The notes under the pieces were generated by a model that was given only the letters and a program-made list of their open reading frames with translations, ran no database searches and had not been told where the DNA came from. Below, piece after piece: positions 34,484 through 51,796 of a stretch of 64,000 nucleotides of DNA; positions within the stretch are counted from its first letter, which is position 1, and each line of letters opens with the position of its first letter. Source of the stretch: a candidate division TA06 bacterium B3_TA06 (lineage in GTDB: Bacteria > Hydrothermota > Tepidihabitantia > B3-TA06); contig NJBO01000003.1 in assembly GCA_005223075.1 (NCBI GenBank), forward strand, positions 9,902 through 73,901. The letters are read 5' to 3'. The position numbers and the translations under genes are program-made.

Positions 34484-34490
34484 GATTTTT

Positions 34491-34674: not shown

Positions 34675-34719
34675 ATGTGAAAAACCGGGGCCGTGAGGCC
34701 CCGGCTCTTTGTGGTCTTT

Positions 34720-36135
34720 CTAGGGTCGGATGGTTAGAAAGTGCGTGTGCCCTCTACGGTTAATCTGGAAAAGGGCCACGTCTGCCTTCTCCAGATCACC
34801 TTTCAGTCTCTTTAACTCTTTGACGTTAGAGATGAGGATTTTGTTGACTTTAATGATTACGTCTCCGACCCTGATTCCTGCCCTGTCGGCCAGACTGCCG
34901 GGTTCGACATCCTCCACCAGAACCCCATGCTTGAGATCATATTCCTTCTTGATTCTGTCACTTATGTCTTTGACCGTTATGCCAAGGATAGATGTCTTGG
35001 TCCCTTTCTCCTCTTCGGGTACAGGCTCGATGCGGGTGGAGAGTTCCTCGCGGCCAGGGCGTTCGGCAAGCCTCAGGGTTATCTTCCTGCGTTTGCCTTC
35101 ACGGATAATATCAAGGTCTACCTTTGTGCCAGGTGCAGTGCTTGCGGCAAGCCAGCGAAGCTGATCTACCGAGGTTATCTTTTCTCCGGCAAACGAGGTG
35201 ATTAGGTCGCCGTCCTCCAGACCCGCCTTCTCGGCCGGTGAGTCGGGAACAACCCTGGTTACAAAAACCCCTTCTTCCTCGATATCCATTGCTTCAAGCA
35301 CCTCAGGTTTGACTTCCTCGAGGTATATCCCCATATAGCCGCGTGAGATCTTGCCGTGCTTGATAAGCTCGCCTGCGATATCGGCGGCCATGTCAGAAGG
35401 AATGGCGAACCCTATACCTGAGTTCGCAAGCCCGTTCGTACGGATAGCGGTGTTGATGCCGATGACCTCGCCATTGATGTTGCATAATGCTCCGCCCGAG
35501 TTGCCCGGGTTGATTGCCGCGTCGGTCTGCAGGAAGTTCTGGTAGCTTGGACCGCCATATAGGAGCACGTTACTGCGTCCCTTGGCACTTACCACGCCCA
35601 CTGTCACGGTTTGCTCAAGGTTGTAGGGGTTGCCGATGGCAATCGCCCAGTCGCCGACCTTGACCTCTTCAGAGCTGGCAAACTTCGCTACCGGGAGGGG
35701 GTCCTTGGCTTTGATCTTGAGAACGGCGAGGTCGGTCTCAGGGTCTGTGCCGATGACTTCCACGTCTTTGCCGGAGAACTCCCTGCCGTCTGACAACTTT
35801 ACTCCGATATCCTTAGCGCCATCAACCACGTGGTTGTTTGTCAGTATGTATCCTCGTTCATCGAAGATCACGCCGGAGGCGGCACCCGGAACAAACCGGG
35901 GGGCACGTGGAGCAGGGATGTCGAAGTCCCAAAATTCAAAGAACTTACGAAGTTCTTCCGGGACACTCTCCTCGTCGAAATCGAACCCCTGAACGAATGG
36001 AACCTCCTTTGTCACGGTGATACCGACCACCGCCGGCGCCACCTTATCCACCACCTCGCTGAATCCTTCAAGCGGTACAGCAGAGTTGAGTGCTGCCGAT
36101 GAGATAAGGATCAAAATGCTTAGAACTCTTCTCAT
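34720..36135 (-). CDS. htrA: HtrA/DegP-family periplasmic serine protease with two PDZ domains
   Basis: 471 aa; signal peptide; trypsin-like core GYILTNNHVV ... GNSGGAL; SD aaggagg. Confidence 0.9.
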   Translation of the reverse strand: MRRVLSILILISSAALNSAVPLEGFSEVVDKVAPAVVGITVTKEVPFVQGFDFDEESVPEELRKFFEFWDFDIPAPRAPRFVPGAASGVIFDERGYILTNNHVVDGAKDIGVKLSDGREFSGKDVEVIGTDPETDLAVLKIKAKDPLPVAKFASSEEVKVGDWAIAIGNPYNLEQTVTVGVVSAKGRSNVLLYGGPSYQNFLQTDAAINPGNSGGALCNINGEVIGINTAIRTNGLANSGIGFAIPSDMAADIAGELIKHGKISRGYMGIYLEEVKPEVLEAMDIEEEGVFVTRVVPDSPAEKAGLEDGDLITSFAGEKITSVDQLRWLAASTAPGTKVDLDIIREGKRRKITLRLAERPGREELSTRIEPVPEEEKGTKTSILGITVKDISDRIKKEYDLKHGVLVEDVEPGSLADRAGIRVGDVIIKVNKILISNVKELKRLKGDLEKADVALFQINRRGHTHFLTIRP

Positions 36136-36186
36136 CTTTTTCCTCCTTACGGTTATTATTGCAACTTTATCCTTACTCCTTACTCT

Positions 36187-36813
36187 TTACCTGTAGATGG
36201 TCTCCCCTACGGTAACGATCCACCCTTCGTCTTCTTGAGGTATATGGAACCGAGGCCCTTGTCTGAAGTGGGGGGTCTTAGCGGCCTCTAAGTTCTGCCT
36301 GGCCGTCTCATCAAGCGGGATAAGAATAACTGTATCATGCGAAGGCTCCTCATAGGCTGCAACATGTACATCTGAGTGGTTGGTTTGGGATGATTGACCG
36401 AACCCCTGAGCGTGTGCCAGCCCAAGCGGCGGGCCAAGGGGTTCGGCTGCGGGTTCAATTACCAGTGGTGTTACGGGTTCCGCTCGAGGCTCAGGAGTGG
36501 TGCTGTGGGGAAGAAGTATAAGGAGAGCTATTGCAGCACTTATTGCAAATCCCAGGACTATCCCGCGCCACAACCCCTGAGTTTTTGGAGCCTTGGAGGC
36601 AGAAATACGTGCACGGACGCCTGCAAGGAGACCTGGAGGAACCTCAACAGGCTCAAGGCTTTCTGCCAGATCCTTAATGTGAACAATCTCTGCAAGGCGC
36701 CTCTTACACCCTGAGCACCCCTTAAGGTGACTTGCCAGGTGAGTTTTTTCCGCTCCACTCAAATCCCCGTCGGCGTAGCGGGATAGGGTTGCATCAGACG
36801 GGTGTCGGCCCAT
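36187..36813 (-). CDS. Anti-sigma factor with zinc-finger (HC2-type) N-terminus
   Basis: Start placed at internal ATG 36811-36813 (SD ggagg upstream; MGRHPSDATLSRYADGDLSGAEKTHLASHLKGCSGCKRRL); ORF-track start 36855 lies inside the sigma-factor gene. Confidence 0.6.
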   Translation of the reverse strand: MGRHPSDATLSRYADGDLSGAEKTHLASHLKGCSGCKRRLAEIVHIKDLAESLEPVEVPPGLLAGVRARISASKAPKTQGLWRGIVLGFAISAAIALLILLPHSTTPEPRAEPVTPLVIEPAAEPLGPPLGLAHAQGFGQSSQTNHSDVHVAAYEEPSHDTVILIPLDETARQNLEAAKTPHFRQGPRFHIPQEDEGWIVTVGETIYR

Positions 36814-37447
36814 TGCGCCTCCGGATTCCTTTAAGTTTTTTCCGCAAGATAACACGCGAACGATGCAGGAGCGACTTGGACGAACCCGCTGTGATACCCA
36901 GGATTTCTGCTATCTCTGCGTGACGGAAACCCTGGATGTCATGAAGCACAAAGACGCTGCGGTAGCTGGGCGACAGGCTTGCAACGGCCTTCTCGAGCTC
37001 AATGCGTGCATCGTGATCGCGCTTCGGCGAGGCCATCCACTCCTGAAGCTCGACCGTCTTAAGCTTCTTGCGCCTCATTCGATCAATGCAGTGGTTCATC
37101 GTGATCCTGTATATCCAGGTCGAAAGCTTCGAACGACCGGCGAACTTGTGCAAGTTCTTGTAGACCTTAACAAACACATCCTGTGTCGCGTCCTGTGCGT
37201 CGGCACGGTTGGCAAACATCCTGTAGCAGAGGTTGTAAACCATAGCCCCGTGGTTGGCATAGATTTGCTCCAGTTTCTTTTCTCGTTCGCGCTCCCCCAC
37301 ATCACCGCGGGCTTGCTGGGCAGCCTGCCCGCTTGTTAGCGTTACCGTTAACCCCTCGGTTTCCATCACTCTCTTTTGACGTGAAGAACCCCTGAAAGGT
37401 TCGCTTGCTCGCCTGGATTTGCCCATATCACGAAGCCGATTCATCAC
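36794..37447 (-). CDS. ECF-type RNA polymerase sigma-70 family factor
   Basis: 217 aa; region 2 (IYRITMNHCIDRMRRKK) and region 4 (RSVFVLHDIQGFRHAEIAEILGITAGSSKSLLHRSR); true start may be ATG 37444 or a downstream Met. Confidence 0.85.
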   Translation of the reverse strand: MMNRLRDMGKSRRASEPFRGSSRQKRVMETEGLTVTLTSGQAAQQARGDVGEREREKKLEQIYANHGAMVYNLCYRMFANRADAQDATQDVFVKVYKNLHKFAGRSKLSTWIYRITMNHCIDRMRRKKLKTVELQEWMASPKRDHDARIELEKAVASLSPSYRSVFVLHDIQGFRHAEIAEILGITAGSSKSLLHRSRVILRKKLKGIRRRNGPTPV

Positions 37448-37449
37448 TG

Positions 37450-37477
37450 ACTATACGTACATATTTGCCAAATTCAA
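37450..37477 (-). promoter_or_regulatory. Putative promoter TTGAAT-N16-TATAGT abutting the sigma-factor start
   Basis: Minus strand: ttgaat (37472-37477), tatagt (37450-37455), then GTG-ATG at 37447/37444. Confidence 0.4.
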
Positions 37478-37640
37478 CACTCGCTCCTCGCGATGACAAA
37501 AGGAACCGGGCCGACCTTATACCCGACCGGGGCACGTTGTCCATCCGGTGACGACGCAATTATCCTCCCTCTCCTCAATTAAAGCGAGGCACCTTGACAA
37601 TCCTGTCTCTCCCATATAATGATCTTAGAAAGGAGGAGTG

Positions 37641-38522
37641 ATGAAAAAGACATCGCTTATTTTGACAGTGGCCCTGCTGGGTACGGTTTTGCTCTCATGC
37701 ACTCCCCATATCGAAGGAGAACTGACCCTGCTGGTAGAGAACCATCTGGAGGCTACCTACTCCCCTCGCTGGTCTGCAGACGGCTCCAAGATATATTTTA
37801 TACACTCAGATGGTCCCCGCAATCCCGACGAACCCGGACAGATCTGGTCGGTCAACCTCGCAGACGAGGCGCTGGAGACGGTCTGTGGGGATACGTTTCA
37901 GGCGATGGATGTCTCTCGCCGTGACGGTATCTGCTTGCCCACCTGGTTTGAAGGCGACGATTGGATCAGGGTGGTGGACATAGAAACCTGGACCACTCTG
38001 GACTCAATAAGGCCCGAGGGCATCTACGGTTACCCCAGGTTCTCGTACGAATCCAGCGAGGTCTTTTATTATATCTATCGGAAGCAGGGTTGGGATTCAA
38101 CCTACCTGCACAGGGTCGAAAGAACCAGCGGCACGGACGAGGTTATCTTCGTCGCGGGGAAGGGCTACAGCGTTGCCCCGGGCCCGGGTGACACCCTGTT
38201 CGCCATAGGAGATGCGATCTACAACATCAACAGCGGCGAGCGAATACCACTTGATCTTGACCCTCAATTCGATGCAGCCCTTGATTGGAATCCGGCCAAC
38301 CCCTCGGAACTTCTTATCTACCAGAGGGAATCCAACCGGAATATACTTTTATTCAACCTGGAGAGGGGAAAGACGAGCAAGGTTGACGCCTCACCGGACA
38401 AAGCGGCCTGGATAGACAACCCTACCTTCTCCCCGGATGGAGAAAGGATCGCCCTCGAAGCAGCCCAGGGCGGGGACAGCTTCTACGACTATCAGATCTG
38501 GATATTCGACTCGATGGATTAG
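37641..38522 (+). CDS. Lipoprotein with PD40/TolB-like beta-propeller repeats (putative)
   Basis: SD aggagg; signal peptide with lipobox LLSC; WSADGSKIYF and FSPDGERIAL repeat motifs; start placed at ATG 37641. Confidence 0.55.
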   Translation: MKKTSLILTVALLGTVLLSCTPHIEGELTLLVENHLEATYSPRWSADGSKIYFIHSDGPRNPDEPGQIWSVNLADEALETVCGDTFQAMDVSRRDGICLPTWFEGDDWIRVVDIETWTTLDSIRPEGIYGYPRFSYESSEVFYYIYRKQGWDSTYLHRVERTSGTDEVIFVAGKGYSVAPGPGDTLFAIGDAIYNINSGERIPLDLDPQFDAALDWNPANPSELLIYQRESNRNILLFNLERGKTSKVDASPDKAAWIDNPTFSPDGERIALEAAQGGDSFYDYQIWIFDSMD

Positions 38523-38593
38523 AAAATAGCACCCCTCTCAGCCCGATTATCTCTTAGGCTCACATCCACATTCTAAATCAACTCAAGATTACC

Positions 38594-38621
38594 TTGATAA
38601 TCCATACAGAAATAGTATAAT
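38594..38621 (+). promoter_or_regulatory. Putative promoter TTGATA-N16-TATAAT
   Basis: ttgata 38594-38599, tataat 38616-38621, ~200 nt upstream of dfx. Confidence 0.4.
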
Positions 38622-38695
38622 TACTGCGATGGATGTAACTCCTGGACTGTATAACCATGTATCTGTCTCAAATATCAATTACTTACACTCCCAGC

Positions 38696-38723
38696 TTGAC
38701 ATCCCCCTTTCTTATCCTATACT
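38696..38723 (+). promoter_or_regulatory. Putative promoter TTGACA-N16-TATACT upstream of dfx
   Basis: ttgaca 38696-38701, tatact 38718-38723. Confidence 0.45.
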
Positions 38724-38830
38724 CAAAAGGGTACTTCCAGAGGGCTTTCCCGGAAGGGTACGAGAAAGTGCAGTGAGATTTTTTGAAGAGATTATTGTTT
38801 CAAAAAATCCAAAAACCCAAGGAGGGTTAA

Positions 38831-39211
38831 ATGCCTGAACTAAAAAAGATATACAGGTGTGAGGAGTGCGGGGACATGATAGAGGTCCTAAAGGAAGGCT
38901 GCGGAAACTACTCGTGTCACGGCGAACCGATGAAGCTTCTGGATGAACAGACCGCTGACTATAAGACCGAAAAGCACGTGCCCATGATCGAGAAGATAGA
39001 AGGCGGCTTCAAGGTCATCGTGGGTTCGACCCCGCATCCCATGGAGGAGGATCACTACATCGAGTGGATAGAGATTACCGATGATGCGGGACGCGTCTAC
39101 CGCAAGCACCTTAAGCCGGGCGACGTGCCTGAAGCTATCTTCATGGTTGATTCCGAAAAGATCGCTGCCCGTGAGCACTGCAACGTTCACGGTCTGTGGA
39201 AAGGAGAATAA
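38831..39211 (+). CDS. dfx: Desulfoferrodoxin (superoxide reductase, 2Fe type)
   Basis: 126 aa; N-terminal desulforedoxin CEECG...C...C motif and C-terminal His/Cys centre (HVP...H...H...C..H); SD aaggaggg. Confidence 0.9.
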
Positions 39212-39213
39212 CC

Positions 39214-39753
39214 ATGATAAGCAAGAAGATCGAGGACGGATTCAACAAACAGCTGAACGCCGAACTCTATGCCGCATATCTCTACTTCGCCATAGGGGCA
39301 TGGTTTGAGGGCTCCAACCTTGAAGGTTTTGCTCAATGGATGAAGGCGCAGGCGTTTGAGGAGATGAGCCATGCAATGCGCTTCTACAACCATATAATCG
39401 AACGCGGCGGAATGGTGGAGTTGTACGCTGTCAAAAAACCGGAGATCACCTTATCAACCCCTGTGGAGGCGTTTGAGGCGGCTTACGAGCATGAGCAAAA
39501 GGTCACAAGGATGATCAACGACCTGGTTGATCTGGCCCGCGAGGAGGGGGACAACGCGGCCCTTATCGGCCTCCTGCACTGGTTCGTTGCCGAGCAGATC
39601 GAGGAGGAGGAGCAGACCCTCAAGGCGGTAGAGCGGCTCAAGATGGTGGAAGGCAGCAAGGAAGGTCTCTTTATGCTGGACAAGGAGATGGGTGCAAGGC
39701 CTCTGATCGCAACCGCAACCATCCTGAATCCGGCTGCAACACCAGGCGAATAA
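39214..39753 (+). CDS. Ferritin (non-haem, Ftn-type)
   Basis: Start placed at ATG 39214 (SD ggaaaggag); ferroxidase-centre pattern E..Y...E..H...E. Confidence 0.85.
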   Translation: MISKKIEDGFNKQLNAELYAAYLYFAIGAWFEGSNLEGFAQWMKAQAFEEMSHAMRFYNHIIERGGMVELYAVKKPEITLSTPVEAFEAAYEHEQKVTRMINDLVDLAREEGDNAALIGLLHWFVAEQIEEEEQTLKAVERLKMVEGSKEGLFMLDKEMGARPLIATATILNPAATPGE

Positions 39754-39953
39754 ATGAAGACACGATGGGCATCAAGGAGATGGTTCCCGAGCGACTGGGC
39801 ACGGAAAGGGTCACCGACATCATTAAGGAGGAACTTTCCCACATCACCATGCTCAGCAATCAACTTAAGGAACTCAAGGGTTGATTCAGGCCGTTTGAGA
39901 GAAAAAGGTTGGGGGTCGCTGCAAGCGGCCCCCGCAGCCCCCAAGGAGAAGGA

Positions 39954-41453
39954 ATGTTACTCAGCCCCAAGACCAGGATCGCAGAACTTCTGAAGGCTTT
40001 CCCTTTCCTGGAGGAGTTTCTGCCCCGCTACAACCCAAAGTTTAAGAAACTCCTTAACCCGGTCGCCCGCAAGACTATCGGCAAGATAGCCACGCTGCAG
40101 ATGGCCGCCTCCAACGCCGATATTGAAGTCACCAGATTCATTGCCGATCTGCGGGATGCGATTAAGAGCCAGACCGGCCAGGAAGTTGGTATAATGAGCG
40201 CCGAGGAGATGGCAGAGCGGGCGAAAAGGATCAGGCAGATACTTGAGGAACTGCACGCAGCCGAGGGGAAGAATATCGAGGAACTGCAGGCGCGGTTCGC
40301 AGCCGAGATCAAGGACGTAAGCCCCACAGAGATCGCCGAGATCGAGCAGCAGTTGATCAAGACAGGCATCAGTGAGGAAGAGATAACCTCGATGTGTGAT
40401 TTGCACGTGGCGGTTTTCAGGGAGTCACTGGATAAACAGGACTCTCCGGGGATGCAGCCCGGGCATCCGGTGCACACCTTCCGCGCCGAGAACCGGGAAT
40501 TCGAGAAGCTGGCAAGACGGTTGAGCGAGCTGACCCGGGATGCCGACGAGCAGGCTTTGGCCGAACGTAAGGACGATCTTGAGGAAGTGCTGGATAATCT
40601 GGGCAAGATAGACATCCACTACACCCGCAAGGAGAACCAGCTATTTCCCTATCTGGAAAAACACGGGGTGCAAGGACCGCCCCAGGTGATGTGGGGGGTG
40701 CACGATCAGATTCGAGAGCACCTTAAGGCAGTTCGTGTCGGACTGACCCAGGGAAATCTCCAGGCAGTTAAAGAGCGCTCCTCAAAGCTGGCCGGTGCGG
40801 TGCTGGACATGATCTACAAGGAAGAGCAGATTCTTTATCCCATGGCCCTGGAGAAGCTGGATGAAACGGAGTGGTGGGAGATTCGCAAGGGGGAGCCGGA
40901 GATAGGGTATGCTTTAATAGATCCGCCGGGCGAGGAGTGGAGGCCGGAAATCGTGGAAGAAAGGAGCGAGGAAATGGCTAAAGAAAGAATTGAAGCAGGT
41001 TCGATGAACCTCAATGACCTGCCCGAAATCGTTGCTCGCAACATGAAACTGCCTCTGGACGTAGGCGAGCTTACCCTGGAGCAGATAAACATCATGCTCA
41101 AGCACCTGCCAGTGGACGTAAGCTTTGTGGACGAGTCGGATGAGCTGCGTTACTACTCCGACACCCCGGAGCGCATCTTCGCCCGAACCCCTGCGGTGAT
41201 CGGCCGAAAGGTGCAGAACTGCCATCCACCCAAGAGCGTGCACGTGGTTAATAAGATACTGGAAGAGTTCAAGAAAGGCAGCAAGGATGCCGCCGAGTTC
41301 TGGATCGAGCTCAAGGGTAAGTTCATCCACATCCGCTACTTCGCCATGAGAGACGCCGATGGTAACTACCGCGGAACCCTCGAGGTTAGTCAGGATGTTA
41401 CAGAGATCCGCAAGTTAGAAGGCGAGAGGCGGTTGTTGGACTGGGAGGATTAA
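39954..41453 (+). CDS. Hemerythrin-like / DUF438-DUF1858-type protein with C-terminal PAS-like domain (putative)
   Basis: Start placed at ATG 39954; domain assignment from recalled family pattern, not searched. Confidence 0.5.
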   Translation: MLLSPKTRIAELLKAFPFLEEFLPRYNPKFKKLLNPVARKTIGKIATLQMAASNADIEVTRFIADLRDAIKSQTGQEVGIMSAEEMAERAKRIRQILEELHAAEGKNIEELQARFAAEIKDVSPTEIAEIEQQLIKTGISEEEITSMCDLHVAVFRESLDKQDSPGMQPGHPVHTFRAENREFEKLARRLSELTRDADEQALAERKDDLEEVLDNLGKIDIHYTRKENQLFPYLEKHGVQGPPQVMWGVHDQIREHLKAVRVGLTQGNLQAVKERSSKLAGAVLDMIYKEEQILYPMALEKLDETEWWEIRKGEPEIGYALIDPPGEEWRPEIVEERSEEMAKERIEAGSMNLNDLPEIVARNMKLPLDVGELTLEQINIMLKHLPVDVSFVDESDELRYYSDTPERIFARTPAVIGRKVQNCHPPKSVHVVNKILEEFKKGSKDAAEFWIELKGKFIHIRYFAMRDADGNYRGTLEVSQDVTEIRKLEGERRLLDWED

Positions 41454-41463
41454 GGAGAACGCC

Positions 41464-41670
41464 ATGGAAGCAAAGAAGATAAAAATCCCAGCGATAAGCT
41501 GTCATCACTGTAAGATGACCATAGAGCGGGAGTTAGGTGAACTTGAAGGTGTAAGGAGCGTTGAGGTAGACGTTGATGCCAAGACCGCCCGCATTCGGTG
41601 GGATGCGCCTGCAACCTGGGAGCAGATCAAAAAGACCCTCACCGAGATCGGCTATCCACCTGAGGAATAG
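41464..41670 (+). CDS. Small HMA-like metal-binding protein with CxxC
   Basis: 68 aa; IPAISCHHCKMTIE (non-canonical CxxC context). Confidence 0.55.
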   Translation: MEAKKIKIPAISCHHCKMTIERELGELEGVRSVEVDVDAKTARIRWDAPATWEQIKKTLTEIGYPPEE

Positions 41671-41674
41671 ATAC

Positions 41675-41881
41675 ATGGAGAAGAAGATAGTCAAGATACC
41701 GGCGATCGGCGGCCACTACAGCCTCATCGAGATGCGGAACGAGCTGGCAAAGCTTGAAGGCGTAAAGGACGTAAAGGTGGATATCACCACCAAGCAAGCG
41801 CGTTTCATCTGGGAAGCACCCGCCACATGGGAGAAGATCAAGGAGCGCATAAGCGCCATCGGCTACCCGCCCCAGGAGTGA
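41675..41881 (+). CDS. Small HMA-like paralog lacking the CxxC pair
   Basis: 68 aa; start placed at ATG 41675; IPAIGGHYSLIE aligns to the CxxC region of the upstream paralog; shared C-terminus WEAPATWEKIKERISAIGYPP. Confidence 0.5.
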   Translation: MEKKIVKIPAIGGHYSLIEMRNELAKLEGVKDVKVDITTKQARFIWEAPATWEKIKERISAIGYPPQE

Positions 41882-41913
41882 AGCCCGACGCATAGAGACC
41901 GCTAGGAGGACTG

Positions 41914-44151
41914 ATGCCGCCTAAATCTCAAAAGACCGAGATACCCATAATCGGCATGACCTGCACCAACTGCGCGTTGACAATCGAGCGCTCGCTGAAG
42001 CGCAAGGTGCCCGGTCTGATCTCGGCCAACGTAAACTTTGCAACAGAGCGAGCATCGGTGGAGTTCGATTCTAAGTTAGCCGATCTCAAGGTGATAGCCG
42101 ACGTTGTCGAGCGGGCAGGCTACAAGGCGGTTCTGCCTGATGACGACGCGAAAGCGGCGGACGCCGAGCAGGAGGCACGGGAGAAAGAGGTTCGCAGGGA
42201 GCGCACCGCGTTCTGGGTGGGTGTGGCGTTCACCGTTCCCCTGTTCGTTTTGAGCATGAGCAGAGATTTTGGGCTCGTAGGCGCGTGGGCTCACCAGCCC
42301 TGGGTCAACTGGCTGTTCCTTGCTCTTGCTCTCCCGGTTCAGTTCTTTACCGGCCTGGGATTCTACATCGGAGGCTTCAAGTCCTTAAGGAACCGCTCGG
42401 CCAACATGGAGGTGCTGGTGGCGATGGGCTCCTCGGTGGCATTCTTCTATTCCCTGGCGGTAATCCTGGTACCCCTGATCGCTCCAGGCATAAGCATCGG
42501 CGAACACGTCTACTTCGAGACCGCAGCCATGATCATCACCCTTATCAAGCTCGGAAAGATGCTTGAGGTGATGGCCAAGGGAAGGACGTCGGCGGCAATA
42601 CGAAAGCTGATGGATCTTGCCCCCAAGATCGCCCATGTGATTGATGCCGACGGAAACGAGAAGGATGTTCCGGCTGATCAGGTGAGACGAGGCGACGTAG
42701 TAATAGTCAAGCCCGGCGAGGCGATACCGGTAGACGGGAAGGTAATTGCCGGAAGTTCCTCAATAGATGAGAGCATGCTGACCGGCGAGTCCATACCGGT
42801 GGACAAGAAGGAAGGGGCTGAGGTGTTCGGCGCCACCGTCAATCAACAGGGTCTTTTGAAGGTTAAGGCCACCGGTGTTGGCTCGGAGACCGCACTCGCC
42901 CAGATCATAAGATTGGTAAGGGCGGCGCAGGGTTCGAAGGCACCCATTCAGAGGTTAGCGGACAGGGTGTCCGGTGTGTTCGTGCCCACGATTATCGGAA
43001 TAGCGATCGTGACCTTTGCTTTGTGGTGGGGATTGGGAGGCGAGTTCGTTCCTGCCATGCTAAGGATGGTTGCGGTTCTTGTGATCGCCTGCCCCTGCGC
43101 ATTAGGATTAGCCACACCGACCGCAATAATGGTAGGTACAGGCAAGGGTGCGCAGATGGGCATCCTCTTCAAATCGAGTGAGGCGCTGGAGACCGCCCAC
43201 AAGCTGGACACGATAATGTTCGATAAGACCGGGACCATAACAGAAGGCAAGCCGGTGCTTACCGATTGGTTGCCTCTGGATAACGGAGATGAAGGACTTG
43301 TTCTCGCCGCAAGTGCTGAGCGCGGCTCCGAGCATCCTATTGCGAAGGCGGTGGTTGAGGGAGCGGAGGGGAAGGGGGCGAAACTTAAAGAACCGAGGGA
43401 TTTCAAAGCGGTCTCAGGATTCGGGGTAACAGCCACAGTCAATGGCAAAGATGTGAAAGTAGGCAAACCCGACTGGTTCGAGTTGAGCAGTGAGATTAAA
43501 GGCAGAGTGGATGAGCTGGCATCGGCGGGCAAGACGGTGATAGTGGTTGAGGTGGATGGCAAGGTGGTAGGACTCTTGGCAGTAGCAGATGAAGAAAAGC
43601 CCTCCTCCCATGAAGCGGTAGCTTCCCTTAAGTTTCTGGGGTTGGTACCTGTGATGCTCACAGGCGACAACGAACGGGCGGCTCAAGCCATTGCTCAAAA
43701 AGTGGGAATTGATAAAGTAATCGCCGGGGTTCTTCCAGAGAAAAAGGAATCCTACATCAATGAATATCAAAAGGATGGGAGGAGGGCGGCGATGGTGGGT
43801 GACGGCATCAACGACGCGCCTGCCCTGGCACGGGCGGACGTAGGGATAGCGATAGGCACTGGCACGGATATAGCGATGGAGGCATCGGATGTAACCCTGG
43901 TGGGCGGCGACCTTGCTGGCGTAGCCAAGGCGATCAAACTCTCCAAGGCAACCATGCGCACCATAAAGCAGAACCTGTTCTGGGCGTTTGCATACAACAC
44001 CGCGCTCGTTCCCCTGGCTGCCGGGGTATTCGCCGCGGTAGGGCTTCTGCCGGGCTTCATCCTTCACCCAATGCTCGCCGCCGGTGCCATGGCGTTTTCG
44101 AGTGTGACTGTGGTGTTAAACAGTTTGAGGCTCTCACGGAAAAAGATATAA
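41914..44151 (+). CDS. copA: Copper-translocating P-type ATPase
   Basis: 745 aa; N-terminal HMA GMTCTNC, CPC transport motif, DKTGT phosphorylation site, GDGINDAP hinge. Confidence 0.9.
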
Positions 44152-44157
44152 TTATGA

Positions 44158-44245
44158 AGTGCAATGACACAGTCATTGCAGTCCAAAAGATTTTATGGAG
44201 TGCAACGAGCGTCTCGTTGCTTGCGACAACACGGTTGTCGCACTC
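44158..44245. repeat. REP-like palindromic cluster upstream of RAYT gene
   Basis: tgcaatgacacagtcattgca and ggagtgcaacgagcgtctcgttgcttgcgacaacacggttgtcgcactcc (outer stem enclosing two inner hairpins). Confidence 0.7.
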
Positions 44246-44262
44246 CAGAATAGCGTTGTATA

Positions 44263-44817
44263 ATGAGCGATGATTTAATCTACAAGCAGCACAAACACAA
44301 TCCACCTCATCTGTTCATCCCCAAAGCCAAATACTTCATCACCGCTTCTACATACCAGAAAAAGCCTTTTCTAAGTTCTCATGAGAGCAAATCGCGTCTC
44401 CTGGAATCCATAATTAAAGGATGCGATAAATCCAACTGGTTATTGGAAGATTGGGTTATACTCGACAATCATTATCACCTGATGCTGCAAGCCCCTGAGG
44501 AGGATCCTGATTTATCCAAAATGATCAGTGAAATCCATCGCTTTACCGCTCTCTGGATAAAGAAAAATGCCTTGGAAGCGAAATCGGCTAAAAGAATCTT
44601 CTGGAACTACTGGGATAGATGTATTACTCACGAACGGTCTTACTTTGCCAGACTAAACTACATTTACTTCAACCCGGTAAAGCATGGATATGTCCCAAAT
44701 CCTGAAGATTATCCGCATGGGAGTTATTATTACAGAATAAAGACTGAAGAAGAACGCCTCAAAAAACTACAACAAGATTATCCTTGGGGTCGTGTCAATG
44801 TCAATGACGATTTCTAG
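44263..44817 (+). CDS. REP-associated tyrosine transposase (RAYT, IS200-like Y1 HUH family)
   Basis: 184 aa; HUH motif NHYHLML and YIYFNPVKHGYV region; flanked on both sides by REP-like palindromes. Confidence 0.7.
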   Translation: MSDDLIYKQHKHNPPHLFIPKAKYFITASTYQKKPFLSSHESKSRLLESIIKGCDKSNWLLEDWVILDNHYHLMLQAPEEDPDLSKMISEIHRFTALWIKKNALEAKSAKRIFWNYWDRCITHERSYFARLNYIYFNPVKHGYVPNPEDYPHGSYYYRIKTEEERLKKLQQDYPWGRVNVNDDF

Positions 44818-44910
44818 CTTGACGCAACAACACGGTTGTCGTACTCCAAAAACCCACTCTGGAGTGCAACGAGCGCCTCGTTGCATGCAACAACACGGTT
44901 GTTGCACTCC
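44818..44910. repeat. REP-like palindromic cluster downstream of RAYT gene
   Basis: cttgacgcaacaacacggttgtcgtactcc and ggagtgcaacgagcgcctcgttgcatgcaacaacacggttgttgcactcc. Confidence 0.7.
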
Positions 44911-44924
44911 AAAATAATCTGTAA

Positions 44925-45371
44925 ATGCCTGATAAGATAAAAGTGCTTTTTCTCTGCATCGGCAACTCATGCCGCTCCCAGATGGCGGAAGGGTTACTCA
45001 GACATCTTGCAGGCGAGCGGTTCGAGGTGGAAAGCGCAGGCACCATCCCTTGCTTCGTTCAGCCTAATGCGATCCAGGTTATGGGTGAACTGGGCGTTGA
45101 CATATCCGGGCAGCGCTCAAAGCACGTGCAAGAATTTCAAGGCCAGTCCTTCGATTACGTTATCTCCCTGTGCGGCGAGAACAACTGCCACTCGTTTATA
45201 GGAAAGGCAGGCCAGAGCCTGCACTGGCCGTTTTCTGACCCGATCAGCGCATCCGGAACCGAGGAGAAGGTGCTGGGTGAGTTCCGCACCGTAAGGGACG
45301 CAATCAGAGCGAAGCTGGAAGAGTTCATAGCCGACCCTGGTTCCTTCTCCTCTGATTATGGAGTGCAATGA
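44925..45371 (+). CDS. arsC: Arsenate reductase / low-molecular-weight phosphotyrosine phosphatase family
   Basis: 148 aa; CIGNSCRS P-loop (CX5R); last codons and stop are supplied by the REP copy at 45359. Confidence 0.7.
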   Translation: MPDKIKVLFLCIGNSCRSQMAEGLLRHLAGERFEVESAGTIPCFVQPNAIQVMGELGVDISGQRSKHVQEFQGQSFDYVISLCGENNCHSFIGKAGQSLHWPFSDPISASGTEEKVLGEFRTVRDAIRAKLEEFIADPGSFSSDYGVQ

Positions 45372-45407
45372 CCGTGTCATTGCTACAACAACACGGTTGT
45401 TGTACTC
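45359..45407. repeat. REP-like palindrome overlapping the arsC 3' end
   Basis: ggagtgcaatgaccgtgtcattgctacaacaacacggttgttgtactcc. Confidence 0.7.
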
Positions 45408-45478
45408 CAAAGGACTTTCGTGAATGTTGCTTTCATCCCCATGTCAAGTAAAATTAGCTAAAGACTCAAGGAGGAGAA

Positions 45479-45988
45479 ATGACTGTAGAAGAGGCGATCA
45501 AGACCGCAATCACCTACGAGACCAGGGTGCGAGACGTTTACCAGGAGGCGGTGGAAAAAGCAACCGACGAGAAGGGCAGACGCATCTTCAAGCTTCTGGC
45601 CGACGAAGAACAGCACCATCTTGACTTCCTTTATTCAAAACTTGCGATGTGGCAGGCATCAGGAGAACTCACCATCGAAGGACTCAGAACCGCTCTTCCC
45701 TCCAAGGAAAGAATCATCGAAGGCACCAAAAAGATGAAAGCCCAGGTCTCCCGGAAGGACTACGGGGCCGAGATCAACATGCTCCAAAAGGCTCTTGAAG
45801 CGGAAAAGGTAACATCGAGCTTCTACAAAAAGATGGTTGAAAAACTCCCCGGCGATGCCCAGAAGATGTTTGCCCAATTCGTGGAGATCGAGGAAGGACA
45901 CCTCGCCTTAGTGCAGGCAGAGCTGGATTCGGTTACAAAGATGGGCTACTGGTTCGACTTCCGCGAGTTCGATCTCTACGGCAATTAA
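45479..45988 (+). CDS. Ferritin-like / rubrerythrin-family diiron protein (putative)
   Basis: 169 aa; E...EEQHH and EIEEGH pairs typical of four-helix-bundle diiron proteins; no rubredoxin domain. Confidence 0.5.
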   Translation: MTVEEAIKTAITYETRVRDVYQEAVEKATDEKGRRIFKLLADEEQHHLDFLYSKLAMWQASGELTIEGLRTALPSKERIIEGTKKMKAQVSRKDYGAEINMLQKALEAEKVTSSFYKKMVEKLPGDAQKMFAQFVEIEEGHLALVQAELDSVTKMGYWFDFREFDLYGN

Positions 45989-45991
45989 TCA

Positions 45992-46026
45992 CCCCACGAC
46001 TTTGCTCACAAAGTCGCGGGGACCCC
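45992..46026 (-). repeat. R1 hairpin repeat (reverse orientation)
   Basis: ccccacgactttgctcacaaagtcgcggggacccc. Confidence 0.65.
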
Positions 46027-46171
46027 AAAATCTTTTCGACAATCGCCGGAATACTTCATCAAGATTCTAAAATCGGCAATCCTCAAACAATGTGGTCTGA
46101 CAAGGAAAGAACTTGAAACTCTGTTATGACCGAGTCCATTATTTCGCTAAGCAACAAGCCTTGCTCACCCC

Positions 46172-46280
46172 GTCATTGCGAGCCACCGCAGGTGGCGTGG
46201 CTCCGTAGGATGACGGCTGCGGAACAATCTCATTGAGATTGCTTCTTCCTGACGCCTGCGACGTTAGGACTCGCAATGAC
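46172..46280. repeat. R7 MITE-like element, copy 2
   Basis: TIR gtcattgcgag (46172-46182) and ctcgcaatgac (46270-46280). Confidence 0.6.
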
Positions 46281-46374
46281 TAACCCTTCTTTCGGAAACT
46301 TCATCTCCCCTAACCACCGACCTACAATCACCCCGCGCTTGACACCCACTTATGCTCGGATATATTACTAGCCT

Positions 46375-46725
46375 ATGAGCAGGATTGAAGATTTCAAAAA
46401 AGAGCGCGAGCGGCTGCACAAGAAGCTGATGGAGTTCGCGGGAAAGAATATGAAGACGTTCCATCACCTCGACTGGCAGACATATCAAGAGGGTGCTCTC
46501 GATGCAAAGACCAAAGAGCTTCTGGGACTGGTGGCCTCGCTTGTGCTGCGATGCGAGGACTGCATCACCTACCATCTTATCAGATGCAAGGAGGAAGGGG
46601 TTACATCTGCCGAATTCGAGGAGGCCCTGATGGTGGGATTAATGGTGGGCGGTTCTATCGTAATCCCCCATCTGAGAAGGGCGGTTGATCTGTGGTGCGA
46701 CATGAAGGAGGGAAAAAATGACTGA
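46375..46725 (+). CDS. Carboxymuconolactone decarboxylase / AhpD-like family protein
   Basis: 116 aa; CEDCITYH motif typical of AhpD-like CxxC...H. Confidence 0.7.
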   Translation: MSRIEDFKKERERLHKKLMEFAGKNMKTFHHLDWQTYQEGALDAKTKELLGLVASLVLRCEDCITYHLIRCKEEGVTSAEFEEALMVGLMVGGSIVIPHLRRAVDLWCDMKEGKND

Positions 46726-47296
46726 TGAACAGAAAAAGGAGCTTTTCTCAAACCTTATCCACAAGGTAAGTCAGGCCACGCGTCCCGTAACACAACCTGA
46801 CTCTTCCCTTTCATCTTCTGAAGCACAGTCAGGCGACGATGCCGATGCCAGGCTTCAGGCAGTATGTGATCTCCTCAAAGAAGAAGTTCCCCACTACGAC
46901 TGGGTAGGATTCTATCTGGTAGACCCCAACAAGGAACGTGAACTTGTTCTCGGCCCATTTGCCGGCGAACCCACCGAACACGTTCGCATCCCCTTCGGCT
47001 ACGGCATATGCGGGCAGGCCGCTGAGCGAAAGAAGACCTTTATGGTCCCGGACGTTGCCAGGGAGCAAAACTATCTCTCTTGCAGCCCGCACGTCAAATC
47101 CGAGATCGTACTGCCCGTACTCAGACAGGGCGAGGTGATGGGGGAGCTGGACATTGACTCCAACACCCTGAATGCGTTTTCGGAGGAGGACAGGGCTTTC
47201 CTCTTAAAGGTCTGCTACGCCGCTACCAGGCTGTTGCAGCGCTCACAGGAGGCAAGAAAAACCCAGTACCCGTACCCCTTCGGGGCATTCTCATAA
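46718..47296 (+). CDS. GAF-domain free methionine-(R)-sulfoxide reductase-like protein
   Basis: 192 aa; WVGFYLV ... ICGQAA motifs typical of fRMsr-type GAF domains. Confidence 0.7.
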   Translation: MTDEQKKELFSNLIHKVSQATRPVTQPDSSLSSSEAQSGDDADARLQAVCDLLKEEVPHYDWVGFYLVDPNKERELVLGPFAGEPTEHVRIPFGYGICGQAAERKKTFMVPDVAREQNYLSCSPHVKSEIVLPVLRQGEVMGELDIDSNTLNAFSEEDRAFLLKVCYAATRLLQRSQEARKTQYPYPFGAFS

Positions 47297-47513
47297 TTAT
47301 TCGGAGCTTACGCTCCGCGCACAAGGAGATAACACCCGTAACACGCCTTGCGTAATATAGATGATAAGTTGCATTGGCAGGAGATTTAAAAATCGGAGGT
47401 TTTGGAAATGAATAGCTCAGTAAGCAGTTATCCCTTCATCAGACAAGGGGCTTAAGCCCCTTGTTGGGAGATTGTAAGACAGAGAAGAAAGAAAAAAATC
47501 AAAGGAGAACGAC

Positions 47514-47675
47514 ATGAAGCGCTACGTCTGCAACGTGTGCGGTTACGTGTACGACCCCGGGGTAGGCGATCTGGATTCGGACATCCCTGCTGGAACCGCG
47601 TTTGAGGATCTACCGGATGATTGGACATGTCCGGTGTGCGGCGCGTCCAAGGACGACTTCTCGCCCGAAGAGTAG
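47514..47675 (+). CDS. Rubredoxin
   Basis: Not in ORF track (53 aa); SD aaaggag; [53 protein letters not shown] with both CxxCG knuckles. Confidence 0.85.
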
Positions 47676-48523
47676 AATCAACCGGGATCTAATCCCCCTG
47701 CCACCAATAACAAAAAGAAGAAGGATACGAATCCAGGCCTTCCTTACAGCATGCGAGGCAACGGATGGGGATGAGTAAACTCCTTTTCACTTGACTTCGC
47801 ATATAAAGTATCTATAATAAGCGTAGGATGTTTTTGAGATATTAGGGATGAGACGGAAGATACCGCAAAAACAGAAGATGAGGAAAATAATATGGAGTGT
47901 AGGATCAGCGAGGGACAAGGAGAATTCTCTGTCCTGCTGCCTTTAAGACAATCAAATCAATGCTCCTACATCGTCTTTTGCACGGGAGAAGGAAAGAAAT
48001 CCACCCGCTCAAGGATCATCGCTGTAGGAACGATACTCGATTCCCACCTTGCAAAAGAGCTCTCAACCCGGGAGGACACACTTCCCCCTCACCGATGACA
48101 GATTCTGGACAACTTTACTGAGAGACTCAAAGACGAGTATACTTTTCAGAATCCGCTATGAAATTATCCATTAGGATAACTCTAAAAATGGATTGCCAAG
48201 AGCCCCTTTTGCAACTCTATAAATTACGCAACTTAACTGAAGGCAACCTGGCACGACGCTTGCTACCCTCCAGAACGAATGGAGGTTGTGATGAAGCTAA
48301 ACATAGAGAAGAAGGAAAAGGAGCGTTTGAAGAAGGAGTTGATCCGCAAGCTTGAGGCGAGAATCCGCCAGGCTCAAACTGCGGATGCAACCCGCGCCTA
48401 CTAGATTAAGATTCAATGCCTCCTCATAAAATGCGGCTCCCCTGTGGGGGGGCCGCTTCCTTTTACCCCAAACCGACGCTGCGCATTGCTTTGGGGACCC
48501 GATCTGGTTTGTAAGGTGTTTGC

Positions 48524-50020
48524 TTACTTAAAGACCGTGATTACAATCCTGCGGTTTAGAGCGCGCCCCTCCTCGGTCTCGTTCGAGGCCACAGGCTCTT
48601 TAGAACCCAAGCCCCTCGCGGTGATAAGATTCGGACTTATCCTCTCCACCCCAACGAAGTAGTTTCTTACAATCTCGGCCCTGGCCGCAGAGAGTGCCTG
48701 GTTGTCCTTATACCTCTCTCTGAACCCCTCGGCTAGAGGAACGTTATCGGTATGCGCCTCGACCCGCAACACCTTCCCCGGATAGTTGGCAAGGAACTCG
48801 CCAATCCTGGCAAGAACTCGATATCCTTCGGGGAAAGGTATCTGGGCCGAGCCCTCGTCGAAGCGGATCGCCTGCTCGGTCACGGTGATACGAACCAGGC
48901 TGTCGCTATCCACTATACCAAGCCCGTGGATACGGCCCACCTCTTCAAGCGCCTCACGTCTCAGACGCTCGATATCCGCACGTTCCCTCTCAAGGGCAGC
49001 GCGCTCCTTTTTGATTTGATCAAGCTCTTCACGTAAGCGGTCGCGCTCACGCGCCAGTGCCTCCTCACGCAGACGCCTTGCACGCTCGGCCTGCTCTGCT
49101 AAGATACTGTCCTTCTCAGCCTTGCGGGCATCGCCGAACAAGACGTTTAAGGAAAACTGGTGAAGAATCATCGAGGTATCGGCAGCCCCGTAGTTTAACG
49201 CCGTGCCGTAGCAAAGCTCGAAGTCCGTCTTCTGTAGCCGGTGTGTGCGCAGGGTTACGCCCAGGGTGGGTGAAAAGCCTGAAAGCTCATCCGTCCCGTA
49301 GCGTATCCCGGCACGCAGTCCAAGATGATCGCGAAACAGATAGGCCTCTGTGCCTAAATGAAGCTTTAAGACATTCTCTCTGAATCTCAAAGCCAGATCG
49401 CCGGCCAAAAGAAGGGATGAGAAGGGTCCCGATCCATTAAGCACCGGTTCCCAGACAATCCCGGTATGGACAATAGGGGATGAATAAAGATCAAACGCCG
49501 TCTCCACCACGGATAATCCCAGGCCAAGCCCTTTCGGTAAAGAAACCAAGCTGCCTATGGAAAAGAAAGCGCCTTTCGTAAATCGCTCTTCAAAGGCGTA
49601 GCGGTCAGGTTGCTCCGGGCTTCTCCAGATACTATGAGTGCCAAATGCCGCACCCAAGTTGAAGTGTTTCCCCAAGGGAACGGCCCAAAAGAAGCGCGCA
49701 TCTGCATCACCGCTTCCCCTGTCTGCCATGCCGGGGATATGCCAGTAGAAGAGATTTCCCCCTATGCTGCCCAGGCCACGCACCGGCTGAACATAGCTAA
49801 AGCTCCAGTATCTATTCCAACGGTACAGCGTGGCAGACAGAGCCGTAACCGGCCGCATCCATCTAGCGGGCAATGCAGGATTGGTGAGAGCGGAGAACGC
49901 ATCATCAGCGACTGCCACCTGATCACCTCCCAGGCCTAAGGTGCGTGCGGAGAAGGATACATCCTCGAATGCCGAAAGGCCTCCTGCCGCAAGAAGCAGC
50001 ACAACCAGACGCTTTATCAT
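48524..50020 (-). CDS. OmpA-family outer-membrane protein with coiled-coil linker
   Basis: 498 aa; signal peptide; C-terminal OmpA-like peptidoglycan-binding domain (NQALSAARAEIVRNYF ... NRRIVITV). Confidence 0.8.
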   Translation of the reverse strand: MIKRLVVLLLAAGGLSAFEDVSFSARTLGLGGDQVAVADDAFSALTNPALPARWMRPVTALSATLYRWNRYWSFSYVQPVRGLGSIGGNLFYWHIPGMADRGSGDADARFFWAVPLGKHFNLGAAFGTHSIWRSPEQPDRYAFEERFTKGAFFSIGSLVSLPKGLGLGLSVVETAFDLYSSPIVHTGIVWEPVLNGSGPFSSLLLAGDLALRFRENVLKLHLGTEAYLFRDHLGLRAGIRYGTDELSGFSPTLGVTLRTHRLQKTDFELCYGTALNYGAADTSMILHQFSLNVLFGDARKAEKDSILAEQAERARRLREEALARERDRLREELDQIKKERAALERERADIERLRREALEEVGRIHGLGIVDSDSLVRITVTEQAIRFDEGSAQIPFPEGYRVLARIGEFLANYPGKVLRVEAHTDNVPLAEGFRERYKDNQALSAARAEIVRNYFVGVERISPNLITARGLGSKEPVASNETEEGRALNRRIVITVFK

Positions 50021-50150
50021 TAAAATCCTCCGGGATGATCCATTTCAGTTGAAGGATAGCCCGCAAGAGAGAAAAGTCAAATTAACCATTAAGGACAACA
50101 AGACGCATGGGCCGACGGGAAGGTCGGCCCGGCTGAGCCTCTATCCTTCT

Positions 50151-51796
50151 CTAACGCAGCAGGATGACCTTTTTTGTCGCCGTCTTAGCAGATTGAAGGC
50201 GAATAAAGTAGACGCCGGGCGAGTGGTGTGTTACGGGCCAGGTGATTGTGCCGGATGATCCGCTGACGTGCAATTCATCCACCTTTCTGCCCACCGCGTC
50301 GAAGACAGCGAAGCTGGCGTGGAAGCCTTGAGGCATATCGAAGTATTGCAGGACGATTTGACGTCCGACCGAAGCTGAGAGCCGCCAATTGGATGGATGT
50401 GTTACGGGTGTTACGGGCGGCTCCTCGGAAATGCCTATCCTCGCAAGATCCGCAACGGGGAAGAAATCCGAACCCTTATCATCTCCACAGCTCGCAATCG
50501 TAGCCACCTTATTGGAAGCCATCACGTGGTAGATCGCATGGGCTGTTGCGTCGCCAAGTGCACTGGTGTAGCGGTAGTACTCCCCTGTGTGTAGAGTTCC
50601 CTGCCAGATTTCTGTTTTGTCTCCTCCATCTCGTGGAATCCTTGTCACTGTGACCTCCGTACTGTCTTTGAATGCGACAACATGAAGTCGAGAATAATAA
50701 TCCCTGCCGCCTCCGGAAAGTGATGTCTCAACGGGGAGATAAAACTCTGTTCCTAGACCGGTGCCGCCTCGGTCTATTCCCCGAACCATGTAGAAGGCAA
50801 TCATGCTTGCACCGTAGCTGGCCCAGGGAGTCTGAGCAACCGAGATATCCTTATCCGCATGTATGTAAAGGGCTATCCTCTGAGGCATATCCATTCCCTT
50901 GATCTCACCCTTTTTAGGACACACCACCTGCCAGATCGTATCAGCGGGATCATCAAGATCGGTAACGACAACCGTTGCATCGTCTTCCCAGGGGATGATG
51001 TTCAAATCCTGAGATGCCTCTGTCCAGTTATGACAATAGGTAATGAAATCCTGACCGGTGAAGGTTCCGTTGAACGCAGGTGCGTATGTGCCTACAACCC
51101 CGCTGAGCCCGCTGAGAGTCACCGCCGACACAGGCTTGGTTGACTCAACCGAGAAGATTAAGGGATGGGGAGTCGGAGAGTCTTGGAGATAATACTCGGC
51201 GCTATCCAGATCGCCCTCCCATATTATTCCACCTTCATCTATATCGCGAACAACGACATGGGTACTATCGTAATAGGCGAAGACAGCTATAACCGCATCG
51301 CTTACAGAAGAGATTTTGGGCCCCACAGATAGAGCTTGGTACTGAGTGGGCTGTTGTTTCCATCCACCGCGTACCAGCAGCCTAATCCTTCAATAAACGG
51401 ATCGCCACTGAGAACCGAAAACCCTTTGGGGGCAATAATTCTGTATACACCTGCGGCGAGATCGCTTACCAGTTTATACTCCTCCTCCATCAAGGTATCA
51501 AACCAGACGGACTGACCATCGGAGTCTACTACCTGGAATTCGGTCGAATCAGCCTAGGAAAAGATCACCACATCGCCGTAGGTATACACGTAGGTGGCAA
51601 AGGTATCCTCTTCGGACAACGCGGGGAATTGAAAGCGCCCGACAGTATGGGTGGGTTCGGAGTCATCAAGGACAGACATCAGTATGCCGCCGACTGCATA
51701 ATCCGACCACTGGTTCTCACCCGATCCGTAGAGGACAAACCCAGCGCCCATAACCAACACCACCAGCACCGCACTCCAAAACACGTTTTTCTTCAT
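50151..51796 (-). pseudogene. Disrupted gene for a T9SS-CTD secreted protein (in-frame TAG plus frameshift)
   Basis: Three consecutive ORFs (51554-51796 with signal peptide; 51302-51493; 50151-51326 ending in T9SS-like CTD GVYFIRLQSAKTATKKVILLR); segments 1 and 2 are in the same frame separated by TAG at 51551-51553; segments 2 and 3 differ by a frameshift near ggggccc/aaaa runs around 51320. Confidence 0.5.

Follow-up and report, generated by a model that had tools for sequence, protein, structure and literature searches.

A probable REPtron with a GGAGT-type tag between copA and an arsC-like gene in the candidate division TA06 bacterium B3_TA06

Repetitive extragenic palindromic (REP) sequences and the genes of REP-associated tyrosine transposases (RAYTs) are combined in units known as REPtrons, the architecture of which has been described by Ton-Hoang/Corneloup (PMC8266576). 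In the E. coli REPtron, the gene for TnpA-REP (RayT/YafM, structure 4ER8) is present at a single locus and is bracketed by its own REPs, which consist of a 5' tag and a hairpin and occur as two types in inverted orientation, as in bacterial interspersed mosaic elements (BIMEs). The Pseudomonas REP doublets forming hairpins (REPINs) are inverted doublets that can be folded as one hairpin, are scattered in intergenic copies and are associated with a single-copy RAYT (Bertels & Rainey 2011). Head-to-head dimers 1-2 bp apart, including heterodimers with different stems, have been reported by Di Nocera et al. 2013 (PMC3733652), as have REP termini that give stop codons to flanking open reading frames (ORFs) and tyrosine transposase genes overlapped by REPs. 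The present analysis concerns a RAYT gene and its REPs, located between copA and an arsC-like gene in a stretch of 64,000 nucleotides of the candidate division TA06 bacterium B3_TA06 (contig NJBO01000003.1, positions 9,902 to 73,901), referred to below as the window.

The locus is best read as a REPtron, in which one resident RAYT gene is bracketed by cognate REPs (probability about 0.85). It fits the described architecture, its tag differing from both GTAG and CGTC. The protein belongs to the same family as the E. coli enzyme (150-185 amino acids (aa), HUH motif, catalytic tyrosine, and asparagine and histidine ligands on the tyrosine helix), the gene is bracketed by its own REPs and probably occupies a single locus, and the REPs consist of a 5' tag and a hairpin, with two types inverted as in BIMEs. 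Unlike E. coli REPs, those of the window carry the tag (T)GGAGT instead of GTAG, and their palindrome is perfect, with 8 bp, a 3-nt loop and no bulge, which resembles the group that Corneloup et al. 2021 call "perfect palindrome". The partner REPs abut (1-2 nt), the host is an uncultured Stahlbacteria/TA06/WOR-3 bacterium, and protein similarity to the E. coli enzyme is limited. The foldable inverted doublets, their scattered intergenic copies and the association with a RAYT recall the Pseudomonas REPINs; in contrast to these, the spacer measures 0-9 nt instead of tens of nt, the halves are different REP types, and the copy number is possibly low. By analogy with the IS200/IS605 elements (IS608, ISDra2), the system would use Y1 HUH chemistry on folded single-stranded DNA (ssDNA), with hairpins like the subterminal ones of those elements and a 5' guide-like tetranucleotide. 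However, the IS200 profile is not reached, nothing points to several copies of the gene, and the repeats occur dispersed without it. REPtrons, abutted heterodimers and REPs overlapping ORF ends are all already known, and nothing at this locus lies outside the known repertoire. The features of the locus, in window coordinates, are listed below.

41914-44151, plus strand: copA-type P1B ATPase gene (Pfam E1-E2_ATPase, Hydrolase, HMA)
44156-44184: degenerate single-hairpin REP (motif and fold)
44197-44246: REP doublet A, 50 nt (motif and fold)
44263-44817, plus strand: RAYT gene, 184 aa (NF047646, active-site residues)
44824-44847, minus strand: orphan right-type REP half with a degenerate stem, 6 nt past the RAYT stop (motif)
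44861-44910: REP doublet B, 50 nt, ending 14 nt upstream of the arsC ATG (motif and fold)
44925-45371, plus strand: arsC-like gene of the low-molecular-weight (LMW) phosphatase family, 148 aa (Pfam LMWPc, 74 bits)
45352-45353: junction of an 89-nt deletion relative to positions 1713-1801 of contig L125 (pairwise alignment)
45360-45408: REP doublet C, 49 nt, holding the arsC stop (motif and fold)
45479-45988: rubrerythrin/ferritin-like gene (profile search)

The RAYT protein, annotated as CEE36_02990 in candidate division TA06 bacterium B3_TA06, matches the NCBIfam equivalog NF047646 with 109.5 bits (cut-off 80) and also Pfam Y1_Tnp, whereas the IS200/IS605 model NF033573 gives 21.5 bits, under its cut-off of 55. 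Its sole match in the Protein Data Bank (PDB) is 4ER8, the E. coli TnpA-REP bound to a REP (phmmer E = 1.3e-11, 137 aligned residues, chain length 165 against 184 aa in the window). In this alignment, H70-Y71-H72, Y133, N137 and H141 correspond to H59-M60-H61, Y115, N119 and H123 of 4ER8, which are the HUH motif, the catalytic tyrosine and the two metal ligands of that enzyme (PMC3479197). Across an alignment of 31 homologues, H70, H72, Y133 and N137 are invariant and H141 is at least 90% conserved; homologue lengths of 180-184 aa match that of the window protein. The initial annotation of this DNA had described the gene as a Y1 HUH transposase of RAYT type inserted in a metal/oxidative-stress island. 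Both profile matches bear out the first part, all the HUH and tyrosine residues on which it could have failed are present on alignment, and the position of the RAYT gene and REPs between copA and arsC in such a cluster agrees with the second. The start codon, described there as embedded at the edge of a REP, is not: the REP ends at 44246 and the ATG follows 17 nt later, at 44263; no start upstream of this ATG is available because of an in-frame TAG at 44251-44253.

The gene has the distribution expected of a resident. An identical protein is encoded in a sister genome, Candidatus Stahlbacteria bacterium E44_bin36, on contig SOJW01000020.1 (130,916 bp, here L001/L090; further contigs are likewise given L numbers), and the copA/arsC context is common to all five contigs with the identical protein, as expected of a single resident gene and not of an insertion sequence (IS). 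An orthologue with 70% identity occupies the copA/arsC site of another WOR-3 genome (L131), where larger multi-hairpin clusters with the boundaries GGAG(T/C)(G/A)C ... GCACTCC stand on both sides of it. The presence of this orthologue at the same site indicates long residence, and the RAYT/REP unit would not, judging from these sequences, obviously be a recent insertion.

Repeat and motif searches recovered five related palindromic elements, all within 44156-45408; the first begins 4 nt beyond the copA stop TAA (44149-44151). The REP unit measures 24 nt and consists of the tag GGAGT, usually preceded by T[A/T]T, and a perfect 8-bp hairpin of the form GCA-N5, 3-nt loop, N5-TGC. Left REPs have an AAYGAS stem and right REPs an AACAAC stem, and the full element is a heterodimer of one of each, inverted head-to-head and 1-2 nt apart. 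In doublet A, the left REP (44197-44220, +) reads GGAGT+GCAACGAG/CGT/CTCGTTGC and the right REP (44223-44246, -) reads GGAGT+GCGACAAC/CGT/GTTGTCGC, with a 2-nt spacer. Doublet B is formed by 44861-44884 (+) and 44887-44910 (-), and doublet C by 45360-45383 (+) and 45385-45408 (-), the latter with the conserved flanks TAT...AAA at 45357-45411. The degenerate REP at 44156-44184 reads GAAGT-GCAATGAC-ACA-GTCATTGC-AGTCC, with a one-mismatch tag on each side. The half-motifs gave no match in 100 shuffles of the window.

As ssDNA, the full elements fold on either strand into two 8-bp hairpins closed by a GGAGT/ACTCC stem, with energies of -20.3 kcal/mol (z -6.2) for doublet A, -20.8 (z -6.5) for B and -17.8 (z -7.1) for C. 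The degenerate REP gives -8.7 kcal/mol (z -4.1), and the orphan half at 44824-44847 folds weakly (z -0.9). Doublet C as RNA forms one long hairpin with G.U pairs (-37.5 kcal/mol, z -5.0), which is the defining REPIN behaviour. The full element is a REPIN/BIME-like heterodimer of about 50 nt, and this is the unit of dispersal. The initial annotation had seen 49-bp cloverleaf-like REPs on both sides of the gene. Palindromes do stand on both sides, and their outer stem exists in the form of two opposed tags (5 bp), but each of these elements is a doublet of two 24-nt REPs with a total of 49-50 nt. A tRNA-like gene, as the cloverleaf appearance might suggest, was not detected by ARAGORN. An Rfam search in E-value mode over 43900-45700 returned no family, only sub-threshold microRNA (miRNA) and small RNA (sRNA) noise; a promoter and terminator scan gave signals not above shuffles and detected no intrinsic terminators with a T-tract; and a literature search for the REP motif returned primer coincidences only.

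Dispersal beyond the locus was assessed by scanning one genome per species with the pattern TGGAGTGCAAY-N9-RTTGC. This pattern is loose, and about 60% of the 132 matches listed (at least 132 in all) are attributable to chance. The three inner pairs that it leaves unconstrained are nevertheless all Watson-Crick in 55 of the 132 matches listed (2.1 expected), and these comprise no fewer than 18 different stems; such compensatory variation argues for selection on the hairpin. Among the matches listed, the hairpin-supported REPs are mostly doublets 1-7 nt apart, doublets occur on at least three further E44_bin36 contigs (L067, L104, L113), where they appear to be intergenic, and REPs are also found in metagenome-assembled genomes (MAGs) of WOR-3, Stahlbacteria, Cloacimonadota, Firestonebacteria, Latescibacterota, Elusimicrobia and Zixibacteria. 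A stricter doublet pattern returned 26 exact doublets on 24 metagenome contigs in about 20 contexts. Their flanks are unrelated except for a fixed polarity, in which TAT precedes the AATGAC-type half and AAA follows the AACAAC-type half, and consequently the doublet is a discrete dispersed unit of about 55 nt. The spacer between the halves is 1-2 nt in the window and, by design, 0-9 nt in the doublet scan, while it reaches 22-43 nt in L104 and L048. Doublets were found at many unrelated loci without any transposase. Genome-wide dispersal of the REPs and single-copy status of the system have indirect support only.

A separate set of palindromes was observed in the same window. GTAG-tagged REP hairpins (e.g. 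GTAGGGGCACGGCATGCCGTGCCC) lie at 10551-10574, 14174-14364 and 23273-23300 and, unlike the GGAGT family, are dispersed in the window. A second RAYT gene, at 54790-55248 (+), encodes 152 aa, scores 110.9 bits against NF047646 and has 25% identity to the first, to which it is unrelated. It is bracketed by classical GTAG-tagged REP hairpins (flanks 54584-54725 and 55245-55291), and in the head-to-head dimer at 55245-55291 the stop TAG (55246-55248) of this gene forms part of the GTAG tag. The genome therefore contains two REP/RAYT systems.

The closest contact between a REP and a coding sequence is seen at the end of the arsC-like gene. The catalytic residues Cys11, Arg17, Cys83 and Cys88 of ArsC are present, and they are invariant in a homologue alignment (A1). 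The protein scores 119.9 bits against TIGR02691, the equivalog cut-off of which is 174.3, and "arsC-like" is therefore the safer name. The gene ends with GAT TAT GGA GTG CAA TGA, which reads D Y G V Q and stop. Its TGA (45369-45371) is located within the 5' arm of the first of the two hairpins of doublet C. Codons 144-148 and the stop derive from the REP and its 5' flank, the doublet supplying the last 4-5 codons. This overlap had been noted in the initial annotation and is confirmed. The same annotation proposed a comparison of related arsC ends, and REP-free alleles and distant homologues indeed carry another, longer tail. In L003 and L125, ArsC has 154 aa and ends with ...ADPGSFSS-GGTEFLISKDS*, whereas the window and L002 read ...ADPGSFSS-DYGVQ* and L001 reads ...ADP-DYGVQ*. 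The long tail (...SF.S-.G..F.V...) is common to homologues at 66-73% identity (alignment A1) and is for this reason taken as ancestral.

The origin of the short end is different from the REP insertion that had been assumed. In L125, doublet C stands 53 nt downstream of the stop of a full-length arsC, and the doublet together with its downstream flank is identical to the window at 69 of 69 positions. Relative to L125, the window differs by a deletion of 89 nt (1713-1801) with TG microhomology, the right end of which falls 2-5 nt outside the conserved TAT-GGAGT edge. Lost with it were the last 11 codons of the ancestral gene (GGTEFLISKDS*), together with a GTAG-type hairpin and a spacer. In L001, a further 15 nt are lost between CTG repeats, with the right boundary as in the window. 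The REP-encoded arsC end is thus one that, on the sequence comparison, arose by an 89-nt deletion fusing the gene to a resident downstream REP. Unlike the cases of Di Nocera et al., in which the families are tagged GTAG or CGTC, the stop TGA is located in the stem and not in the tag, and a particular deletion, of 89 nt, can be identified among co-existing alleles as the source of the fusion. The LMWPc domain (residues 7-134) is intact.

Several further observations concern this gene. Behind the stop of the full-length arsC of L003 and L125 stands the GTAG-type REP GTAGGGGCACGG..., of the kind dispersed in the window; at this site the window has lost it through the deletion. At codon 89 (45189-45191), the window has His where at least 90% of 25 homologues have Pro (NNCHSF vs NNCPSF), and codon 104 is Ser for Pro; both changes lie in a patch that differs from sister alleles, which may be a recombination mosaic or reflect relaxed constraint. 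A derivation of the arsC start region from the REP/RAYT flank, suggested by similar ACTCCARAATA...ATG contexts, was rejected, as the N-terminus matches that of REP-free homologues.

The co-existing alleles, recovered via the identical RAYT and via arsC homologues, differ by a series of small rearrangements (indels are given relative to the window). L001 lacks 44152-44193 (42 nt, the degenerate REP) as well as 44824-44886 (63 nt, the orphan half and the left half of doublet B), the latter being the interval between two directly repeated right halves. In L002, 22 nt of the orphan half are missing and the copA 3' end is duplicated together with a REP half (about 50 nt). In L003 (664-715) and L125 (1195-1249), the two halves of doublet B are separated by an insert of 52 nt with the sequence CGAATACGTTTCGGGGTCCCCGCGAAGCTGCRAAGCAGGTTCGTGGGGTGAC. 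A sequence similar to this insert, GGGGTCCCCGCG..., adjoins a doublet in L113 (about 4900), and the insert may represent either the spacer of a REPIN or another, third family of small repeats. In L131, a unit of about 135 nt including the copA 3' end is present in three tandem copies. Tandem duplication of approximately the last 15 nt of copA (…GAAARRAGATATGAT), along with REP clusters, is seen once in L002 (3160-3225) and three times in L131 (3617-3925), and this suggests that unequal recombination or slippage during replication has recurred where copA meets the REPs. L125 is without the RAYT gene. Its structure is the one that an L003-like haplotype would have once the two identical left halves of 25 nt on either side of the gene had recombined.

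Over a larger scale, the comparison of window 34300-53800 with L001 gives a mosaic of identities (mean 93%, 300-nt windows up to 100%, most divergent aligned block 85.8%), which indicates frequent homologous recombination in the population. For the REPtron block (44194-44917) the identity is 99.3%, against 91% for copA and 93% for arsC, and this block is located within one of several blocks of about 99% in this 20-kb comparison. The 99.3% identity was consequently rejected as proof of recent mobility.

A REP-free version of the site is also available. In L126, in which arsC is 71% identical and which was seen on 12 contigs, the same gene island is present with copA and arsC 72 nt apart and with neither RAYT nor REP. 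Its copA has the same C-terminus (RK.I*), and TGGAATGC follows straight after the stop. This sequence resembles the REP tag and stem start (TGGAGTGC; L126 4917-4960 vs L002 3917-3960 and window 44149-44160) and, from the letters alone, may be either the relic of a REP or a mimic of a target. It is followed in L126 by the ancestral leader CTCCTTTTTACC.GCGGTAAAAAG, which is kept downstream of the REPtron in L002 and L004. In these two contigs the ancestral-looking arsC leader, homologous to the L126 intergenic region, includes a Shine-Dalgarno-like GAAGGA, and the window is without it.

RAYT homologues with 51-61% identity to the window protein were found in four other phyla, with hairpin clusters on both sides in each case. 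The tag is GGAGTGC in Zixibacteria (L132), GGAGTCC in Planctomycetes (L159), GGAAT in Marinimicrobia (L161) and GGACCGA in Deltaproteobacteria (L162). T[A/T]T precedes the tags at all these loci, and the tag varies with the RAYT across all five other loci (these four and L131). GTAG and CGTC are absent as tags from the REPs of the window RAYT, which are marked by T[A/T]TGGAGT; they are a feature of the described REP superfamilies and not of the RAYT protein family. A broader but tentative reading, held to be possible and no better than doubtful, is that this RAYT belongs to an undescribed REPtron lineage of candidate/FCB-group phyla with T[A/T]TGGA-type tags, still active in nature and rewriting gene ends. 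Such a lineage may span Stahlbacteria/TA06/WOR-3, Zixibacteria, Cloacimonadota, Marinimicrobia and Planctomycetes. Its REPs may be packed as 2-4 hairpins under an outer tag-tag stem, with the tag replacing the GTAG/CGTC of the two described superfamilies, and RAYT nicking at REP edges may yield REP-bounded deletions and duplications, such as the change of the arsC tail, the copA 3' end duplications and the loss of the arsC leader.

Other explanations of the locus have to be weighed against the REPtron. The palindromes could be the ends of an autonomous IS200/IS605-type IS that recently moved between copA and arsC, with no genome-wide REP family. The Y1_Tnp match, the hairpins on both sides, the confinement of this REP type to one locus within 64 kb and the higher identity of the REPtron block than of its neighbours all agree with such an element, as does the empty site of L126, which opens with the tag-like TGGAATGC as for an IS608-like target. 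However, it is the RAYT model that is passed and the IS200 model that fails, doublets stand at many unrelated loci without a transposase, the identical protein occurs in one context only, the 70%-identical orthologue at the same site points to long residence, and the same mosaic comparison contains other blocks of 99% identity. A recent IS is accordingly considered very unlikely. The palindromes might instead have evolved in place as regulatory structures of the host, serving as terminators, mRNA stabilisers or protein-binding sites, the link to a transposase being incidental. The elements are intergenic and are stable also as RNA, and E. coli REPs have such secondary roles according to the literature, but neither T-tract terminators nor an Rfam family were detected, the units are discrete, of about 55 nt and with identical ends in unrelated contexts, and the flanking tag varies with the RAYT at all five other homologue loci. 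This explanation is highly improbable.

For the arsC end specifically, a REP doublet could have transposed straight into the 3' end of the gene and replaced its terminus. The overlap of the REP with the last codons and stop, together with the other C-terminus of REP-free relatives, is what such an event would leave. In L125, however, the same doublet with the same downstream flank already lies behind a full-length gene; no ancestral 3' codons remain downstream of the REP in the window, where a simple insertion would have left them; and the second, nested loss in L001 ends at the same REP edge. Direct insertion is therefore regarded as unlikely, and deletion against a resident REP is preferred.

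Some observations weigh against the REPtron reading or its details. No recognisable Shine-Dalgarno sequence precedes the RAYT gene, and the sole promoter-like match between REP and RAYT was discounted, as its -10 element overlaps the ATG. No GGAGT-type REP was found outside 44156-45408 in the 64-kb window, which lends no support to a high copy number in this genome. E. coli TnpA-REP contacts GTAG, and the tag of the window REPs is a different one; consequently, the details of recognition are extrapolated. The RAYT-less L125 is one metagenome contig of 2.4 kb with its junction in a 25-nt exact repeat, and because of this the loss of the gene is possibly an assembly artefact. Finally, the deletions at REP edges may have been made by the RAYT or by simple hairpin formation or slippage, and the sequence fits either.

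On the REPtron reading, the following mechanism can be proposed. By homology with E. coli TnpA-REP, the RAYT, a monomeric HUH/Y1 ssDNA nuclease-ligase related to the IS200/IS605 transposases, would bind the folded tag and hairpin and cut beside the REP through a 5'-phosphotyrosine link at Y133, with the metal held by H70, H72, N137 and H141. It would then rejoin strands and thereby spread or rearrange doublets. Because REPs are both directly and invertedly repeated around the RAYT gene, the locus would be a hot spot of small rearrangements, in which strains differ by the 42-nt and 63-nt indels, the 52-nt insert and possibly the loss of the whole RAYT gene. The deletion of 89 nt at the 5' edge of a pre-existing doublet fused arsC codon 143 to the REP, leaving the ArsC catalytic domain untouched. 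In E. coli, REPs within about 15 nt of a stop are reportedly able to stall ribosomes and lower expression, a finding ascribed to Liang, Rudd and Deutscher (Mol Cell 2015). By analogy, the position of the arsC stop inside a stable hairpin may lower or modulate the expression of this gene.

The current understanding of REP biology is unchanged by this locus. What it offers is, on the one hand, an extension of REP/RAYT systems, studied almost only in Proteobacteria, to uncultured sediment phyla, with a tag unlike GTAG and CGTC, and, on the other hand, the marking of the copA/arsC interval as a hot spot of small-scale rearrangement. It also carries a warning for annotation, since the short alleles of arsC, with 143 and 148 aa, derive from a gene of 154 aa through fusion to a REP. 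The allele series provides a clean natural example of how a REP-encoded C-terminus and stop can arise through deletion against a resident REP and not through insertion.

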